DNA of 64,000 nt from an uncultured delta proteobacterium (GTDB taxonomy: Bacteria; Myxococcota_A; Polyangia; Polyangiales; B10-G4): NCBI GenBank assembly GCA_963727445.1, contig CAVSGI010000008.1, forward strand, positions 320,001-384,000, written 5' to 3'. Below are positions 1-6,286 of this stretch, piece by piece. The notes under the pieces are model-generated. The model saw only the letters and a list, made by a program, of their open reading frames with translations, did no database searches and had not been told where the DNA came from. Made by a program: the position numbers and the translations under genes. Numbering within the stretch: the first letter of the stretch is position 1; each line of letters begins with the position of its first letter.

Positions 1-1
1 G

Positions 2-172
2 GTCACGGCCAGCGTGGGCGCCGCGGCAGCCACCATGATCTCCGACGACGGGACCGGCTGGCGCAACCCTCGAGAGGTGATCGTCGAGGCCCTCGGGCGG
101 GCGGACGAGGCGCTCTACGAAGCGAAAGCGAGCGGGCGCAACAAAGTCGTCCTGCATTCGCGCGACGCGTAG
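2..172 (+). CDS. 3' end of a GGDEF diguanylate cyclase (partial, runs off window start)
   Basis: Frame 2 reads VTASVGAAA...ADEALYEAKASGRNKVV...*, the typical GGDEF C-terminus; TAG at 170-172. Not in the supplied ORF track. Confidence 0.85.
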   Translation, partial: VTASVGAAAATMISDDGTGWRNPREVIVEALGRADEALYEAKASGRNKVVLHSRDA

Positions 173-189
173 AAAGAAAACGCCCGACG

Positions 190-2045
190 GAAAAGCAGAG
201 GGGCGACCCTTTCGGATCGCCCCTCTTGGAAAGTCGTCGTTGGTGCATGTCGTCTTTCGAACGACTGGGACCGTTTTTCGCGGCCCGCGCACCATGTGGA
301 TGCGAGTTACGTCGCACCCACGGTGACCGTCATCATGTGGGCTCACCGCTTCTTGCCGCCGTCGGTTGGAGCTCCTCTCGAAGCTTCCTCCCTGTTTGAC
401 CAGTTCGCGCTGGTGGCGTGCGCGGGGGATGGGGCTATTCGCCGTCACCCGCTTCGATCGTCTCCAGTGATGACCCCACGAGAGGAGCGCATTCGAAAAT
501 AAACTCTTCGCGGTCTGTGGCCCCCCTCCGTTGCTCTGCGCCACGGTGACTTCTCAGTCCCGTTGCACCTCGAGGTAGCCTTGTCCATCACGGCCCGATC
601 TCTGACGTTTCATGTCGCTCCGCAGGTGCCGTGTACGAGCTTCTCGCGCCCGCACCCGATCTCCGTTCACCCCGCATCCCCGAAGGGTGCGTCGGCCGTC
701 GGACCTGCTTCGCCAGACACGGTCGTCACCCGCCCTTGTTTAAGGGGCGAGCGCGTCGCCGCGCCGAAACGCCTTCCGTCGTCCATCGGTCCTTCGAGCG
801 TAGCTCGAAGTGCAGCTTCGACTTTCTCCTGGCCTGGAGAAACATCGGAGCTCCCGCACCCGTTTCACATCGAAGACTCACCCGCGACCGCGTCGAACGT
901 TTCGCGAGCTCTCTTCGCTGCTAGCGCATCCCGACCACACGACCCTTTCGAGCCGCCCGGAGGATGTGCAAGGGGCACGTCGTGGCGACGTTTGCAGCCC
1001 ACATTCTTCAGTTTTCAACGACGCTCATCCACGTCTCGTGCAGCTACCGTTTCGCTCGGGGACCGAAATCCCTCTGCTCTCCGGTCGAGCGTACCGTTCA
1101 CGGCGGAACGCTCGGCTTCGGCGGACCGGTCGTAGCGGTGAAGCCTTTTCGACTCCGTTTTCCCGCCCGTTTCCGGCCGAACCTCTGACGCCCCGTCGTC
1201 TCCGCCTCGGATCGGGCGCCCTTTCGGGACCTTCTCCTTCGCTTCGACCTAGCCCGCTTCTACCGCCTCCCCGTGAGGGCGACGGCTTGTTCCCGGACCG
1301 GGACGCCTCCACCGACAAGACCTCCGAAGAGGTGCTTTCGAAGCGACGCCTCTCGACGCCTCTCGATGACCCGATGCTCTTCACCTTGGATCCTTCGGAC
1401 CCTCCGCTAGACGGTTTCACGTTCGCGACTCTCGCCGCTCTCGCTCCCCCGCCAGGCATCGCCTGTCGGCTTGTGCAGCTTTTCAAAGACACGACCCGCG
1501 GACAAATCCGCGATTCCGATCCCCGTGTCCGGTGTTTCGGACGTTGGGTGACGTGCTCCGGGACGAGCCCGAAACCGCCAGCCGAGTGTCGCCTCGCGAG
1601 GAGCGCCAGCCTCCGCCAGCACCTAGCCCCGCTCGCCGACTTTCCCGAGCATCCGTGTCGCCTCCCCGAATCCCGAGGGCCGAGAAGGTCCCTCGTACCA
1701 TCGAAAAGGCCAAGGCCCCGCTTTGCAACGCGCCCCGCGAAGGGCGCATCTAGGCTGCGGACCGGATGCCTTCCACCATCGACCCTCGGGTGCGTCCGAG
1801 CCCCTTTTCAGAGCCCGCCCGCGTCACTCCCGAATCGTCCTTCCCGTGACTGTTGCCACCCACGAGACGGCGATGCCTCTTGTGCCTCCCAGAGCCGCCC
1901 ACCTTCGACGGGCATCACGACCTCGGAAGACTCGACCGACCCATCAGAGCGCGAGAGCCTCGCTACCCCTCTGAACCGCCCGCAGCATCTCGACAGCTTC
2001 TGCGACCGTGGAATCTCGCGAACTCACGTACCGCGACCTTCCGAG
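190..2045 (-). ncRNA. Putative very large structured non-coding RNA of unknown family
   Basis: No ORF here shows the genome's codon pattern or a recognisable protein. There are many hairpins with GNRA/UUCG loops and G-U pairs that work only on the minus strand, which is purine-rich. A candidate promoter and a terminator flank it. Confidence 0.65.
191..226 (-). terminator. Intrinsic terminator-like hairpin, possibly also serving the convergent GGDEF gene
   Basis: Minus strand AGAGGGGCGATCC-GAAA-GGGTCGCCCCTCT (13 bp stem, one G-U pair) followed by GCTTTT. Confidence 0.7.
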
Positions 2046-2049
2046 AGTC

Positions 2050-2078
2050 TTTATGCCGGAACCGCCAACTCTCTGCAA
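2050..2078 (-). promoter_or_regulatory. Candidate sigma70-type promoter for the putative ncRNA
   Basis: Minus strand TTGCAG-N17-CATAAA preceded by a T-rich tract; the predicted start near 2043-2045 coincides with the 5' closing stem. Confidence 0.4.
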
Positions 2079-2106
2079 CAAGAAAATGCGCCTCAATGCT
2101 CTTTTT

Positions 2107-2159
2107 TTATCCACAGCGGCACCCCTGAACTATCCACAGCTATCCACAGCCACTCCACA
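2107..2159 (+). promoter_or_regulatory. DnaA-box cluster
   Basis: TTATCCACA at 2107-2115 (perfect), CTATCCACA at 2130-2138 and 2140-2148, degenerate CACTCCACA at 2151-2159. Confidence 0.7.
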
Positions 2160-2378
2160 AAGGGGCTATCACTAGGGGTTTTTGAGCGGAACACCAACGC
2201 CGACCGCTGTGCAGACCTCGGACATTGGCGTGCTTGATACCAATCTTCTCCAATTGTTTTTCGCCCGTGAATAGCGTTTGAGTCGTGCACGCAACCGGAG
2301 CCTCGGAGCGGTCGCTCAGCCCTGAAAGCCGTGGGTTTTCGCTACGCACGGGGGCGTGGCTTTCGTTTCGGCAAAGGG

Positions 2379-3803
2379 TCAACGCCCTCGGCGTCGAAGC
2401 ACCAAGAGCACGGCTAGGAGCAATGCGCCGCGAGGCAACGCCCCCACGGGCTCCGCAGCGAGAGTAGAGGTGTCGCAGCCGCTGCTCCGTTCCGCATGCG
2501 TCGGTGTCGCCGGCACGACCGCCGCCGCCTCGGCGTCAGGGACGTGTTCGGCCTCGGGGGTCGTCGTTTCCGGCCCGGGCGGTGGCTCGGGGCGCCGGAT
2601 CAGCGACTCCGGGAGCCAGCCTTCGCGCCCGAAGAGGTCGCGCACCCGGACCATGTCGCCGCGCGTCTCGAGCTCGCGCAGCAGGAACCCGCCCTTGATG
2701 GTGCCGAGGCTCTCGGCGCTTTCCTCCAGGGATGCGCGCAGCTCGCCCTCGCCCTCGGCGCGCAGCTGAAAGTGGCTGAGCAGCACGTCGTTCTCGCGCC
2801 GCTTGGTGATGATCACGTTCGAGATCAGCTGTTGCATCGCGAACGCACCCGCGACGTGGCCCACGCGCACATCGTCGAGACCGCGACCCCGAAGCTCTTC
2901 CACGTCGTCGTCGCTCAGGCCGAGGTCGCGCGCGAAGGCGCTGCCCCGCGCGCGGTCGCGCGCCGAGGCGAGGCGCGACTGCTGTAGGTAGAAGTGACTG
3001 GTGGTGTGCAGCACCCGGCCCTCCCCTTCCACGAAGGTCACGGCGATGGCCGCCTGACCGTAGCGACGCCGCATCTCGTCGCTGGTCAGCAGCACCTCCA
3101 CGCGGCGCGGGTCGAGCACGCGGATCGGATAGCTCGAAGACTCGAGCCACCAGCGGAGCTCGTCGCTGGTCCCCTGCACGTTGTCCATGAAGGGATGGTC
3201 CTGGTCGAGCACCTCGACGGTGACGACGTCGTTGCCGGTGTCGCGCCCGCCGCGGCGGATCGTCTCGGGGAAGGCGCGCGTCGCGAGGCGCAAGGCCCAG
3301 TCGGTGGTCACCAGGAAGCCCCCCGTCTCCACGAAGCGCCGGAGCTTGTCCACGCCGGCCCGGCTCATGTTCCCCGGGCAGTTCACCATCACCGTCTGGG
3401 TGCTCATCAGCGGCAGCTGCGCCACCAGGCGGGGCGGGAGCACCACGTGGTCCGTCTCCAGCGCCGTCAGAACGTCCTGGACCCGATCGAAGGTGCCGCG
3501 GACGACGATCACCTCGGCCTGGCGTGCGTTTTCGAGGAGCTCGAGATCGTGGGGCCGCGACGAGCGCAAGCGCCGGCGCACCAGTTGAGACGCGACCGAG
3601 TTCGCCTGGCGCATCTCCTCTGAACCGAGCGTCCCCGTGGCGTTGCCGTCAGTCGCCTGACGCCGCGCCCGCGCCGGCATCGCCTGGTAGGCGTTGTCCA
3701 TGAAGTACTGCTCTTCGGCGGCCTGAGCCCCCACCAGCGCCGGCGCCGCGCCCCACAAGAGGCTCGTCGCGACGGCGCACCCCACCAGGTGTCGCATCGT
3801 CAT
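2379..3803 (-). CDS. Secreted protein with class I glutamine amidotransferase-like domain, SH3-like domain and MYXO-CTERM-like sorting tail
   Basis: Signal peptide MTMRHLVGCAV...AQA; VMVNCPG...LRRFVETGGFLVTTDWA; VRVRDLFGREGWLP; C-terminal SSGC...LLLAVLLVLRRRGR. Start re-assigned within ORF 2379..4448. Confidence 0.7.
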   Translation of the reverse strand: MTMRHLVGCAVATSLLWGAAPALVGAQAAEEQYFMDNAYQAMPARARRQATDGNATGTLGSEEMRQANSVASQLVRRRLRSSRPHDLELLENARQAEVIVVRGTFDRVQDVLTALETDHVVLPPRLVAQLPLMSTQTVMVNCPGNMSRAGVDKLRRFVETGGFLVTTDWALRLATRAFPETIRRGGRDTGNDVVTVEVLDQDHPFMDNVQGTSDELRWWLESSSYPIRVLDPRRVEVLLTSDEMRRRYGQAAIAVTFVEGEGRVLHTTSHFYLQQSRLASARDRARGSAFARDLGLSDDDVEELRGRGLDDVRVGHVAGAFAMQQLISNVIITKRRENDVLLSHFQLRAEGEGELRASLEESAESLGTIKGGFLLRELETRGDMVRVRDLFGREGWLPESLIRRPEPPPGPETTTPEAEHVPDAEAAAVVPATPTHAERSSGCDTSTLAAEPVGALPRGALLLAVLLVLRRRGR

Positions 3804-3854
3804 GGGGGGTGCGACGGGTGGGATCCGCCGAGGATCTAGAGGAAGATGCCGGCC

Positions 3855-4670
3855 ATGAGTGAAGGAAGAGCTGGCCAGGGAGAGGGCCAGAGAATTGCCC
3901 TGGTGACGGGCGGAACCGGCGCCATCGGGGAGGCCATCGTGCGCGGGCTCTGTGCGCGGGGGTTTTCGGTCATCACCACCGCCCGCAGCGAGGCCAAAGG
4001 AGCGGCGACGACCAAACGCATCCAAGAAGCCGTTCCGGGCGCCGAGGTTCGCGCGCTCCAGGGAGACGTGAGCACGGCGGCGGGCGTGACCGACCTCCGC
4101 GCCCACGTCGACGGTCCCCTCCACGTCCTCGTCAACAACGCCGCCGAGTGCCCGAAGCGTCGCGAAGAGACCGAGGAGGGCGTCGAGCGCCAATGGGCCA
4201 CGAACGTCCTCGGCTACTACCGGATGATCCTCGCCTTCGAGGACCTGCTCGCGGCGTCCGCGCCCGCGCGGGTGGTGAACGTGGCGAGCTACTGGGCGGG
4301 CGGCCTCGACCTCGACGATCCCGAGTTCGTGGAGCGGCGCTACGACAACGACAGCGCCTACCGGCAGAGCAAACAGGCAGATCGCATGATCACCGCGGGG
4401 CTCGCCGAGCGCCTCGCGACGAAGGGGATCACCATCAACGCCTGTCACCCCGGCGACGTCCCCAGCAAGCTCGCGCGCGATCTCGGCTTCGGCGGCTCCT
4501 CCACCCCAGAGCAGGGGGCGGCGACGCCCCTCTTCCTCGCCGCCGACGCGAGCGTGGAGGGCGAGACCGGCGGGTACTATGCGCGCTCGCGTCGCGAGGA
4601 CGATCCCTTCACTCGCGATCCCGCAGAGGTCGAGCGGCTCCTGCTACTCTGCGCCTCCTACGCTCGATGA
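3855..4670 (+). CDS. Short-chain dehydrogenase/reductase (retinol dehydrogenase-like)
   Basis: VTGGTGAIG, NNA, VVNVAS and YRQSK motifs. Confidence 0.9.
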   Translation: MSEGRAGQGEGQRIALVTGGTGAIGEAIVRGLCARGFSVITTARSEAKGAATTKRIQEAVPGAEVRALQGDVSTAAGVTDLRAHVDGPLHVLVNNAAECPKRREETEEGVERQWATNVLGYYRMILAFEDLLAASAPARVVNVASYWAGGLDLDDPEFVERRYDNDSAYRQSKQADRMITAGLAERLATKGITINACHPGDVPSKLARDLGFGGSSTPEQGAATPLFLAADASVEGETGGYYARSRREDDPFTRDPAEVERLLLLCASYAR

Positions 4671-6286
4671 TTCGGCTCGACTCGGTCTCCAAACAACACG
4701 GCTCCCAGATCCTCTTCCTCGAGGCGTCGATGAGCGTCTTCAAGGGCGAGAAGGTCGGCCTCGTCGGCCCGAACGGCGCCGGCAAGTCCACCATCTTCCG
4801 CATGATGGTCGGCGAGGAGCAGCCCGACGCGGGCCGCGTCGTCCGCGAGAAGAACCTGACGATCGGCTACTTCGACCAGAACGTGGGCGAGATGAGCGGG
4901 CGTTCGGTGGTGGCCGAGACCATCGCCGGCGCAGGCGAGGTCGCCGAGCTCATGGCCGAGCTCCGCACCCTCGAAGCCAGGATGGCCGACCCTTCCCACG
5001 CCGACGAGCTCGAAAGGGCGATCGAACGATTCGGCGAAGTCCAGGCGCGCTTCGACGAGCTCGATGGCTACGGGCTCGAAGCCCGCGCGCGCGAGATCCT
5101 CGCCGGCCTCGCCTTCCCCGAAGCGCGGGTCGACCGCGACGTCGGCGAGCTCTCGGGCGGCTGGAAGATGCGCGTCGCGCTGGCGCGCATCCTGTTGATG
5201 CGGCCCGACGTGCTCCTGCTCGACGAGCCGACGAACCACCTCGACATCGAGTCGATCGTCTGGCTCGAAGGCTTCCTGCGCGACTTCGAGGGCGCGTTGG
5301 TCATCACCTCCCACGACCGCGATTTCTTGAACCGACTGGTCACGAAGATCGTGGAGATCGACGGCGGCGAGCTCACCACCTACAGCGGCGACTACGACTT
5401 CTACGAGCAGCAGCGCGCGCTCGCGGACGCGCAGCAGGAGGCGCAGTTCGCACGCCAGCAGGCGATGCTCGCCAAGGAGAAGGCCTTCATCGCGCGCTTC
5501 AAGGCGCGCGCCAGCCACGCGGCGCAGGTGCAGTCACGAGTGAAGAAGCTCGACAAGATCGACAAGATCGAGCCGCCCAAGCGGCGCAAGGTGGTCCAGT
5601 TCGAGTTCCGCGAGCCGCCGCGCTCGGGTGACGACGTCGTCCAGCTCGACCACGTGCACAAGGCCTACGGCGACCACGTGATCTACGACGACTTCGATTT
5701 CCTGATCCGGCGCCGCGAGCGCTGGTGCGTGATGGGCGTCAACGGCGCCGGCAAGTCGACGCTGCTCAAGCTGGTCGCGGGCGCTACCGAGCCGGACACG
5801 GGTGAGGTGGTGGTCGGGGCCAGCGTGAAGATGGGCTACTTCGCGCAGCACGCGATGGAGGTCCTCGATCCCCAGAAGACCGTCTTCGAGTCCCTCCTCG
5901 ATGAGCACCCGCGCGCCTCCATCGGTCAGCTCCGCACCCTCGCGGGCGCCTTCGGCTTCAGCGGAGACGAGGCCGACAAGCCCTGCCGCGTGCTGTCCGG
6001 CGGCGAGAAGGCGCGCCTGGTCCTCGCCCGCATGCTCTACGACCCGCCGAACTTCCTCGTCCTCGACGAGCCCACCAACCACCTGGATCTCGCGACCAAG
6101 GAGATGCTGGTGGAGGCGCTCCGCGACTTTCAGGGGACGATGCTCTTCGTCTCCCACGACCGCGAGTTCCTCCGCGGGCTCGGCACGCGCGTCCTCGAGC
6201 TCACGCCCGAGGGCGTGCATCGCTACGAGGGCAGCTACGCCGAATACGTCGAGCAGACCGGACACGAGGCCCCCGGGATCGGCTGA
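4667..6286 (+). CDS. ABC-F family ATP-binding protein
   Basis: Two ABC domains (GPNGAGKS/LSGGW/LLLDEPTNHLD and GVNGAGKS/LSGGE/LVLDEPTNHLD), no TM segments; ATGA overlap with the SDR. Confidence 0.93.
   Translation: MIRLDSVSKQHGSQILFLEASMSVFKGEKVGLVGPNGAGKSTIFRMMVGEEQPDAGRVVREKNLTIGYFDQNVGEMSGRSVVAETIAGAGEVAELMAELRTLEARMADPSHADELERAIERFGEVQARFDELDGYGLEARAREILAGLAFPEARVDRDVGELSGGWKMRVALARILLMRPDVLLLDEPTNHLDIESIVWLEGFLRDFEGALVITSHDRDFLNRLVTKIVEIDGGELTTYSGDYDFYEQQRALADAQQEAQFARQQAMLAKEKAFIARFKARASHAAQVQSRVKKLDKIDKIEPPKRRKVVQFEFREPPRSGDDVVQLDHVHKAYGDHVIYDDFDFLIRRRERWCVMGVNGAGKSTLLKLVAGATEPDTGEVVVGASVKMGYFAQHAMEVLDPQKTVFESLLDEHPRASIGQLRTLAGAFGFSGDEADKPCRVLSGGEKARLVLARMLYDPPNFLVLDEPTNHLDLATKEMLVEALRDFQGTMLFVSHDREFLRGLGTRVLELTPEGVHRYEGSYAEYVEQTGHEAPGIG

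Follow-up and report, generated by a model that had tools for sequence, protein, structure and literature searches.

It is concluded with high confidence that positions 191 to 2044 of the window (the whole 64,000-nucleotide stretch of DNA that was analysed), read on the minus strand, constitute a gene in its own right that specifies a non-coding RNA about 1,850 nt long, i.e., a new, expressed, large, structured and stable RNA; this confidence covers the identity of the locus and excludes its mode of action. A conserved promoter of the sigma-70 type drives transcription, which stops at an intrinsic terminator (Table 1). The product is a stable RNA of high abundance with extensive base pairing; its fold comprises several domains, and the long-range helices that close each of these have been maintained through compensatory changes. 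It belongs to an undescribed family (1.6–2.5 kb) that is limited to a portion of the Polyangiales. A first-pass annotation, made from the letters alone, had suggested that the minus strand encodes, between a promoter and a terminator, a structured RNA of rRNA size that is not yet described, and every named test that was run supported this proposal; the bounds were revised, as the conserved unit extends upstream to about position 2160 and includes a regulatory region with DnaA-box-like repeats. Compensatory pairs exceed those of slid and shuffled controls and the transcript is present in contigs, which reveal neither strand nor exact ends directly; the strand is taken from the orientation of promoter and terminator, the excess of G-U pairs and the loop types. 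Readings of the 191–2044 RNA as messenger, leader or antisense RNA, or as a mobile-element relic, were excluded.

Table 1. Features of the RNA gene and of the region upstream of it, in window coordinates; "others" are sequences outside the set from which the structure was derived, and "slid" denotes control pairings with slid partners.
Feature	Positions	Strand	Details
RNA	191–2044	-	About 1,850 nt; starts near 2044 (+/-3 or more) and stops at the U-tract of the terminator
Three DnaA-box-like 9-mers	2107–2148	-	Upstream of promoter; 2107–2115 is TTATCCACA
Two of these 9-mers	2130–2138 and 2140–2148		CTATCCACA on the + strand; read TGTGGATAA/G in the RNA direction
A7 tract	2102–2108	-	Directly downstream of the proximal box, at about -58 to -64 relative to the 5′ end; near-invariant AAAAAAA in alignments
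Promoter	2050–2078	-	-35 TTGCAG (2078–2073), 17-nt spacer, -10 CATAAA (2055–2050)
P1 hairpin	2016–2036	-	2036–2031 with 2021–2016, in near-invariant 5′ block GAAGKUCGCGG; 98% of cells paired in 76 others, 96.9% in A2
P2 hairpin	1978–2007	-	2007–2000 with 1985–1978; 98% paired in 76 others; also from structure-agnostic scan
Helix 1982–1972/1942–1933	1933–1982	-	Rich in compensatory changes; 81% paired in others; 13 bp, 9 pairs changed on both sides, 7–25 sequences with double changes per pair
Helix 1988–1984/1877–1873	1873–1988	-	Closes 5′ subdomain; 98% paired in others (slid 30–40%); also in structure-agnostic scan
Helix 1770–1764/1654–1648	1648–1770	-	96% paired in others; double-sided covariation in 6 of 7 pairs
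Long-range helices 1505–1497/1033–1025, 1494–1489/1041–1036, 1480–1477/1045–1042	1025–1505	-	Close central domain of about 470 nt; 93%, 80% and 90% paired in others (slid 27–54%); 8-bp run with 5 covarying pairs
Inner helices 1470–1462/1319–1311, 1307–1299/1195–1187, 1298–1293/1257–1252	1187–1470	-	87%, 80% and 91% paired in others
3′-half helices 992–983/785–775, 773–766/611–604	604–992	-	70% (controls 10–22%) and 97% paired in others; all 8 pairs of the second covary
Long-range helices 1024–1016/335–327, 1003–994/345–336	327–1024	-	Close 3′ domain (about 680 nt); pairing in others 69% and 72% (slid 27–38%), in the 13 training sequences 94% and 92%
Candidate 3′ strand of end-to-end helix	228–236	-	With 2042–2034, 9 bp in the window; tentative
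Intrinsic terminator	191–226	-	Stem-loop 226–197, 13 bp, GAAA loop, then U-tract

The region is conserved from end to end in other genomes, i.e., beyond chance, and 89 distinct collinear homologs with lengths of 1626–2506 nt were gathered. All homolog records that carry a title are Polyangiales-type MAGs, and 26 of 27 genomes gave a single match. The genome under study has two copies in total, the second being a paralog that is 61–65% identical and retains all conserved blocks. The conserved positions cluster in unique blocks at junctions and loops; in the variable regions the alignment of distant subfamilies is poor, and the MAFFT alignment was made without iteration from 27 sequences of 2.5 kb. 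Between loci L047 and L058 the RNA is 88% identical and the adjoining MscS gene 75%, in line with selection on the RNA. The expected homologs across Myxococcota were found in part: relatives keep the RNA, but it is only a part of Polyangiales, and not Myxococcota at large, that carries the family. Outside the order, weak covariance-model matches were obtained in seven genomes (E 1.7e-6 to 2e-4), four of which gave loci, and the full-length HMM confirmed none of these; they are treated as chance or as undetectably diverged. The same HMM did not confirm locus L196 from within the order.

It had been claimed that 173–2378 holds no credible CDS, and this holds true. The largest ORF (810–2237 on the plus strand, 475 aa) is rich in Arg, Ser and Pro and is lost in relatives, the same-genus copy L063 has open frames of at most 259 aa in any frame, and no conserved ORF was present among 45 homologs. 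Substitutions between homolog pairs lacked three-base periodicity (lags 3, 6, and 9) within the RNA, and the share of indels in multiples of three was 0/6, 0/14, 1/7, 0/16, 0/28, and 0/12 for six closer pairs. As a positive control, four flanking gene pairs from the same genome pairs gave peaks at lags 3, 6, and 9, clearly for MscS and the AI-2E transporter and more weakly for the other two. A codon-level pattern is absent from the homologs and covariation is present, and a protein-coding gene or pseudogene is ruled out by a frame that is not kept, absent periodicity and indels that are not multiples of three.

The structure derived from 13 sequences was kept in 76 others that were aligned by sequence alone, with 20,655 of 29,701 cells (69.5%) paired compared to 39–41% with slid partners. 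Within the 5′ 140 nt, 91.7% of the cells were paired (34–41% slid) and 121 cells had double changes as opposed to 15–51 in controls, and none of 500 shuffles attained the observed values. The domains closed by long-range helices measure 0.5–0.7 kb. The choice of the minus strand is supported by 5,060 G-U cells versus 2,319 A-C cells and by the four-base loops, which are of the GNRA or UNCG type in 208 of 626 cases on this strand versus 90 of 626 on the opposite one; the RNA is also purine-rich (58%), as had been noted. Mutual information with APC on 89 sequences placed 7 of the 100 top column pairs in the structure, and because subfamily-diagnostic columns dominated the signal the approach was dropped for tests of the structure against slid partners. 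As a whole the secondary structure is provisional; P1 competes with a predicted helix 2023–2011/1517–1506, and many helices of the variable regions are at background in distant subfamilies.

All hairpins that were initially read from the sequence are present where they had been placed, and those at 939–956, 673–691, 727–753, 792–810, and 1729–1748 match helices of the comparative fold. Comparative support does not extend to the hairpin at 368–388, which sits in a window-specific insertion, or to that at 1321–1332, for which 43% of cells are paired in other subfamilies, i.e., background. The hairpin at 1497–1512 is 73–82% paired but competes with the better-supported long-range helices. The stem 1922–1930/2037–2045, thought to close a 5′ domain, is a perfect 9-bp stem in the window but is not conserved, with 43% pairing in 76 others against a background of about 40%. 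A pairing of the two ends of the RNA with each other is tentative and statistically unsupported. In every subfamily a complement to the 5′ GAAGKUC block directly precedes the terminator, in differing registers, and a column-based test of this pairing failed as the register varies between subfamilies. In a weak test against random windows the mean best helix was 6.8 versus 5.9 bp, and 4 of 43 sequences were at rank 0.05 or better.

The predicted transcript was found: RNA libraries contain exactly the RNA stretch without its flanks, and among the 20 listed runs in which the stretch occurs, 16 are metatranscriptomes. In four studies, metatranscriptome contigs span 233–2033 at a word depth of 35–1,250, and cover of the flanks (1–167 and 2172–4676) was 0 except for 1.02 in one X7 bin (2840–3006). 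RNA-library cover is absent at 1–232 and 2034–2171, gaps from which the RNA ends are not fixable, and RNA-library pieces as long as 1,020 nt show differences at 12 letters. In metagenome collections 16 of 80 contigs, from relatives, begin 0–16 nt before the conserved 5′ motif GAAG (2041–2038). It is conceivable, but improbable, that the transcript serves as a precursor, from which several smaller functional RNAs are cut, instead of staying one molecule of 1.85 kb. The RNA contigs in four runs are fragmented (233–1027, 998–1721, 1692–2033, and 1000–2019) with several loose ends and joints, and the domains are individually closed by helices, as in precursors from rRNA operons. The contig breaks, however, fall at strain variants and at conserved blocks common to relatives, which is an assembly effect, and helices connect segments 470–690 nt apart. 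Furthermore, relatives have single contigs of 1.8–2.46 kb that begin at the 5′ motif and stop just short of the terminator, although contigs cannot prove one molecule. On the strength of these joined segments and spanning contigs this reading, the fallback of the first-pass annotation (several co-transcribed RNAs), is less likely.

In the search against described families, cmscan gave no match inside the RNA. The 4,227 models of Rfam 15, which included rRNAs, RNase P, tmRNA, 6S, group I and II introns, OLE, GOLLD, ROOL, HEARO, and raiA, gave a single match at E ≤ 1 in window positions 1–5000, to ncS16 at 2370–2451, outside the RNA and at 24.2 bits, below the gathering score of 48, and no match in seven homolog loci (58,067 bases). 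Literature searches found no published description of the family. Membership of the rRNAs was rejected, as the SSU, LSU, and 5S models matched neither window positions 1–5000 nor the seven homolog loci, and the neighbours are ordinary protein genes. The RNA does resemble 16S and 23S rRNA in its kilobase size, purine-richness, long-range helices closing domains and very high abundance in RNA libraries, and rRNA operons in a strong promoter that follows an A-rich upstream element and in a possible, here unproven, pairing of transcript ends. On the other hand it is outside any rrn operon, has no adjacent tRNA, 5S, 16S, or 23S, and is confined to part of one order. With group II introns it shares large size and several domains radiating from long-range helices, but the Rfam intron models gave no match, it is not inserted in a gene, it has no reverse-transcriptase ORF, and it has its own promoter and terminator. 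RNase P RNA, tmRNA, 6S, and SRP RNA are similar in that each is an abundant, trans-acting RNA from a separate gene that has a promoter and a terminator of its own; none had an Rfam match here, and the Polyangiales RNA is 5–20 times larger than these RNAs are known to be, and lineage-restricted.

GOLLD, ROOL, and OLE, with sizes of about 0.6–0.8 kb, are comparable in kind, as large, multi-domain, non-coding RNAs that are highly conserved with covariation and had no known function at discovery. The Rfam models of all three were without match, and the Polyangiales RNA is about 2–4 times as long and found in a different phylum. OLE sits with genes for partner proteins and GOLLD and ROOL are often in prophages, whereas the Polyangiales RNA is absent from viral contigs and without conserved neighbour genes. 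The flanking genes vary by lineage, which argues against a ribonucleoprotein of the OLE type with conserved adjacent partner genes; partners may be encoded elsewhere. According to PMC12286853, GOLLD, ROOL, and OLE all form homo-oligomeric RNA complexes, and by analogy such assembly could be one model for the action of the RNA described here.

Most likely the RNA would be trans-acting, forming the structural core of either a ribonucleoprotein or a particle made of RNA only. Given a structured RNA, a scaffold or particle core is modestly favoured, a ribozyme is unlikely, a regulator that sequesters a protein is a shade less likely still, and something else takes the remainder. A global regulator of this kind would be a sponge similar to 6S or CsrB and not a structural or catalytic core; it would fit an abundant, stable, purine-rich RNA with many GGA and GAAG motifs, encoded by a stand-alone gene with growth-linked promoter features. 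Against it, there is no repeated array of binding motifs or internal duplication, with few short two-copy repeats; conserved unique junction and loop blocks are kept together with many long-range helices, and the architecture goes far beyond the needs of known sponges, judging by their sizes.

Position and spacing of the promoter are conserved across subfamilies, with -10 TAGTAT or TAATAT in Sandaracinaceae-type copies. The promoter had been proposed from a single sequence, and conservation across homologs and transcript-like contig starts speak for it, while a strict consensus scan called 0 sites. The proposed terminator, a strong one, was recovered by a scan of the minus strand (9 of its pairs are G-C), and its stem is 96% paired in others with compensatory changes. 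Two to four DnaA-box-like repeats and an A-tract precede the conserved promoter. Box-type repeats are kept at -150 to -80, with at least one strict box in 54 of 89 upstream regions, and 55 of 86 boxes are at -90 to -80. Three of the four DnaA-box-like matches in the window are upstream of the RNA promoter, and of four DnaA-box clusters in the 9.47 Mb genome two are the promoters of the RNA and its paralog. The other two, at C15:112860 adjoining an AAA/TPR/cyclase regulator gene and at C6:166610 between ybeY and an HU-like gene, are not at dnaA and neither identified an origin; dnaA itself is on another contig, unlinked to the RNA gene. By its position the A7 tract would be UP-element-like. It is possible, if somewhat doubtful, that DnaA is the binder of the box cluster, as judged by consensus matches and conservation. 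Since an A-tract at the position of an UP element and a DnaA-box-like cluster are located just upstream, synthesis of the RNA would probably be strong and coupled to growth or to the state of replication. That the locus functions primarily at the DNA level, as a site that binds or titrates DnaA or as a replication element with incidental transcription, is very improbable: the boxes are conserved and make up half of the genomic clusters, but they take about 60 bp upstream, whereas the conserved part is the 1.85 kb downstream, which follows base-pairing rules of one strand and accumulates as RNA, with dnaA on another contig.

No reverse transcriptase, transposase or integrase was present among 105 flanking ORFs, consistent with the check for mobile-element genes, and the cargo of a mobile element or prophage and a retroelement RNA were rejected in view of the absence of linked genes, two copies of so low an identity and 0 matching viral contigs. 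A decayed protein gene or a mobile-element or prophage remnant that is transcribed by happenstance would account for a long stretch that is free of ORFs and poorer in G+C than the flanks, and for two copies in the genome, but can be dismissed almost entirely given conservation across families with covariation and no codon patterns, an RNA that is more conserved than the neighbouring gene, one copy in most genomes, the lack of mobile-element genes, terminal repeats and viral matches, and the conserved promoter and terminator.

Myxobacteria have giant genomes and complex behaviour. The new RNA family is restricted to one order of them, and non-ribosomal bacterial RNAs of such size and structural complexity are extremely rare; according to PMC12286853 the few known large ones each opened new biology or RNA architecture. 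The abundance of the RNA suffices for assembly from small environmental RNA libraries, and unless it is depleted as rRNA is, it could occupy part of the metatranscriptome reads from sediment and soil. It is tempting to speculate, though rather unlikely in full, that this is the largest class of non-ribosomal structured bacterial RNA (1.6–2.5 kb), of rRNA-like complexity, which would be the core of an unknown machine, be it a ribozyme, a ribonucleoprotein or a self-assembling particle, and be made in very large amounts under DnaA control. An RNA gene with defined ends and a partial fold backed by covariation is a concrete handle for a new ribonucleoprotein, ribozyme or RNA assembly, and may provide a link between DnaA and a non-coding RNA.

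The minus strand of window positions 191–2044 gives rise to a discrete, abundant, non-coding and structured transcript with its own promoter and terminator. No credible ORF was found between 173 and 2378, where the first-pass annotation had already seen none, and this gene-free stretch has a G+C content of 0.53–0.69 vs. 0.67–0.75 in the flanks. Its plus strand is rich in C and T with a GC skew of −0.13 to −0.31, which makes purines 58% of the minus-strand product (G 37.5%, A 20.5%, C 27%, U 15%). The end of the left neighbouring ORF presumably resembles a GGDEF-type tail; the 440-aa stretch encoded by 2382–3701 (minus) on the other side matched no Pfam family at E ≤ 1e-5. A terminator-like hairpin (2341–2360) lies directly past the stop of this minus-strand gene at 2379. 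Codon-level conservation was likewise sought among the homologs and none was found: there was no conserved ORF, no mismatch periodicity at lags 3, 6, and 9 in RNA pairs 60–95% identical, and, among the closer pairs, six had 0/6, 0/14, 1/7, 0/16, 0/28, and 0/12 indels in multiples of three, whereas distant pairs had 5–11 out of 27–45. Four flanking protein genes, compared as a control in the same genome pairs, did give peaks at lags 3, 6, and 9 (two clear, two weaker), and between loci L047 and L058 the RNA is 88% identical and the adjoining MscS gene 75%.

Sixteen of the 20 listed public runs with the stretch, drawn from 11 studies, are metatranscriptomes (sediment, salt marsh, mangrove, wetland). 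When four runs, one from each of four studies, were mapped to window positions 1–5000, run contigs covered 233–2033 (run X1), 397–2019 (X4 and X5), and 323–2027 (X7), with summed word depths over the RNA of 35–1,250. Depth was zero at 1–167 and 2172–4676 in all four, except for 1.02 in one X7 bin (2840–3006), and this silence of the flanks disfavours DNA carry-over. Near-identical long pieces were present (795 nt with 4 differences; 1,020 nt with 12). The sole other cover above trace in 1–5000 in these RNA libraries was a short conserved piece at 4743–4806, inside a plus-strand ORF (3846–4670 onward); its contigs continue into unlike sequence and the cover thus comes from other organisms. Loose ends resembling adapter adjoin 233 (X1) and 2028 (X4), a weak hint that these positions mark molecule ends. 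Among 80 fetched metagenome-collection contigs, 16 start 0–16 nt upstream of GAAG, where random contig ends would give an estimated ~0.5, and as the commonest offset is 3 nt (5 contigs) the 5′ end is placed near 2044. Five transcript-like contigs of the Labilithrix-type subfamily (L162, L171, L153, L108, L151; ~2.35–2.46 kb) stop within ~20 nt of one another at ...GGAAAGCGAAC, directly before the terminator hairpin, which hints that the hairpin is trimmed off the mature RNA. The contigs are strand-blind, and the minus strand, as first proposed, is assigned because of the orientation of promoter and terminator, the G-U vs. A-C cells in helices (5,060 vs. 2,319) and the four-base loops, of which 208/626 are GNRA/UNCG on the minus strand vs. 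90/626 on the other.

Features of the RNA gene and its neighbours (window coordinates; helices in RNA direction; paired, standard pairs in the 76 other homologs)
Feature	Position	Strand	Remark
Left neighbour ORF	stop at 170–172	+	56-aa end matched no Pfam family
Helix	450–446/431–427	minus	91% paired
Helix	773–766/611–604	minus	97% paired
Helix	992–983/785–775	minus	70% paired; controls 10–22%
Helices	1024–1016/335–327 and 1003–994/345–336	minus	69–72% paired; controls 27–38%
Helix	1298–1293/1257–1252	minus	91% paired
Helix	1470–1462/1319–1311	minus	87% paired
Helix	1505–1497/1033–1025	minus	93% paired
Helix	1770–1764/1654–1648	minus	96% paired
Helix	1988–1984/1877–1873	minus	98% paired
Hairpins P1 and P2 (5′ end)	2036–2031/2021–2016 and 2007–2000/1985–1978	minus	98% paired
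5′ block GAAGKUCGCGG	GAAG at 2041–2038	minus	near-invariant in alignments
−10 CATAAA	2055–2050	minus	alignments
−35 TTGCAG	2078–2073	minus	followed by 17-nt spacer
A7 tract	2102–2108	minus	alignments
DnaA-box-like repeats	2107–2115, 2130–2138, 2140–2148		upstream of promoter
Right neighbour gene	stop at 2379	minus	upstream of RNA promoter

The source genome carries one further copy only (G000:C23:11975–13921, i.e., L061:4976–6922), which has boxes, an A-tract, a promoter and a terminator of its own and is 65% (BLAST) or 61% (pairwise MAFFT) identical to the window copy. As the copy in a same-genus genome matches this paralog better (73%) than it does the window copy (60%), the duplication is older than the split of the two species. 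The distribution counts are lower bounds, because the filters were strict and the covariance model covers the 5′ domain alone. BLAST matches occurred in 9/41 relatives and 36/401 genomes of the order, and a profile HMM identified the short ones as 5′ ends of full-length collinear homologs. A 5′ pattern search returned 36 records among 185,579 species genomes, plus 85 metagenome contigs, and the resulting 89 distinct long homologs measure 1,626–2,506 nt from 5′ motif to terminator. All 36 genome records have MAG titles: 6 Labilithrix, 10 Polyangiaceae, 3 Polyangiales, 4 Sandaracinaceae, and 13 generic (Myxococcales, Myxococcota, delta- or Proteobacteria). The 5′-domain model matched 27/151 order genomes at E ≤ 1e-7, each with a single copy save the source genome, in Polyangiales families f1, f2, f5, f11 (4/9), f17 (9/23), f18, f22 (7/23), f23, and f24, and gave no match in f3 (0/15), f7 (0/10), f9 (0/23), and f16 (0/23). 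Among 151 genomes sampled from the phylum, the full-length HMM confirmed same-order matches only.

RNAalifold predicted a multi-domain fold from 11–13 sequences of the window-type subfamily. In an independent test, 89 sequences were aligned by a sequence-only HMM and the structure of 13 window-type rows was scored on the 76 others, where 20,655 of 29,701 cells (69.5%) held standard pairs vs. 39–41% with partners slid 1–3 columns. The 5′ 140 nt (49 sequences) were 91.7% paired vs. 34–41% slid, with 121 double-change cells vs. 15–51, and 0/500 shuffles reached the observed values; covarying pairs, for which the first-pass annotation had suggested a check, are thus present above slid and shuffled controls. 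A scan without energy model gave 18 antiparallel runs, part of them cross-matches among similar G+C-rich segments, vs. 5 parallel control runs. The terminator hairpin is 96% paired with compensatory changes. The long-range stem of 1922–1930 with 2037–2045 proposed earlier is only 43% paired and not conserved. The 5′ GAAGKUC block can pair with the segment directly before the terminator in every subfamily, in differing registers (here 2042–2034 with 228–236, 9 bp); a comparison of this pairing with random windows gave a weak result. Many variable-region helices do not rise above background in distant subfamilies, and certain predicted helices compete with one another; the full fold is provisional. 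Purifying selection acts on the base pairs of the RNA and on its unique junction and loop blocks. Two motifs occur twice in it (RNA sense), CGUCAGAGRUYSGGCCG at 591–607 and 1174–1190 and CGGGUGCGGGNGC at 646–658 and 850–862, each at the 3′ side of a helix that closes a domain, and may reflect repeated structural modules.

The upstream layout of repeats, A7 tract, −35, −10, and 5′ block is constant across alignments, with 2–4 repeats of (C)TGTGGAnAA upstream of the promoter. The sigma70-like promoter read at 2050–2078 is therefore conserved in position and layout, but a strict consensus scan finds 0 sites; by direct reading, the −35 and −10 hexamers agree with consensus at 3/6 and 4/6 positions. 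Sandaracinaceae-type copies have TAGTAT or TAATAT as −10. The terminator suggested at 191–226 was recovered by a scan at 226–197 (13 bp, 9 G-C, GAAA loop, U-tract). The DnaA-box consensus is near-universal, and by their match to it the upstream repeats are putative DnaA binding sites. The genome has 85 8-mer DnaA boxes and just four clusters of at least two within 250 bp, two of which lie at the promoters of the window copy and its paralog; dnaA (C15:317 kb) is on another contig than the RNA gene. Another cluster (G000:C6:166610–166758, L199:3111–3259) lies between genes for the ybeY endoribonuclease and an HU-like DNA-binding protein, and the last (G000:C15:112860–112960, L198:3361–3461) beside a large AAA/TPR/cyclase-domain regulator gene; neither adjoins dnaA and neither is obviously an origin.

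An Rfam 15 cmscan (E ≤ 1), suggested with the first reading, matched no known family inside the RNA; the sole match, ncS16 at 2370–2451 (24 bits vs. a gathering score of 48), overlaps the 3′ end of the minus-strand gene ending at 2379 and is probably due to chance. Full-text literature searches yielded no description, nor did a term search of one 2026 preprint about the non-coding space of prokaryotes. The closest counterparts of the RNA are GOLLD, ROOL, and OLE, which have large ornate folds and assemble as oligomers (PMC12286853), and rRNA, which is comparable to it in size, abundance, closure of domains and style of promoter. It is a member of none of these. At 31 loci, the 105 ORFs beside the RNA gene have unrelated functions (LysR, CitMHS, MscS, LigB, PGA_cap, response regulator, multihaem cytochromes, G6PD/OpcA, and others), and none encodes a reverse transcriptase, a transposase, an integrase or a Cas protein; synteny is confined to sublineages, and viral contigs searched with the 5′ pattern gave 0 matches.

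The RNA most likely acts in trans and forms the core of an RNP or RNA-only assembly: its architecture is much conserved, and it has no cis target, no array of repeated binding sites and no linked protein gene. It may instead be a ribozyme or a protein sponge. It is conceivable that the A-tract and boxes couple its synthesis to growth or replication.
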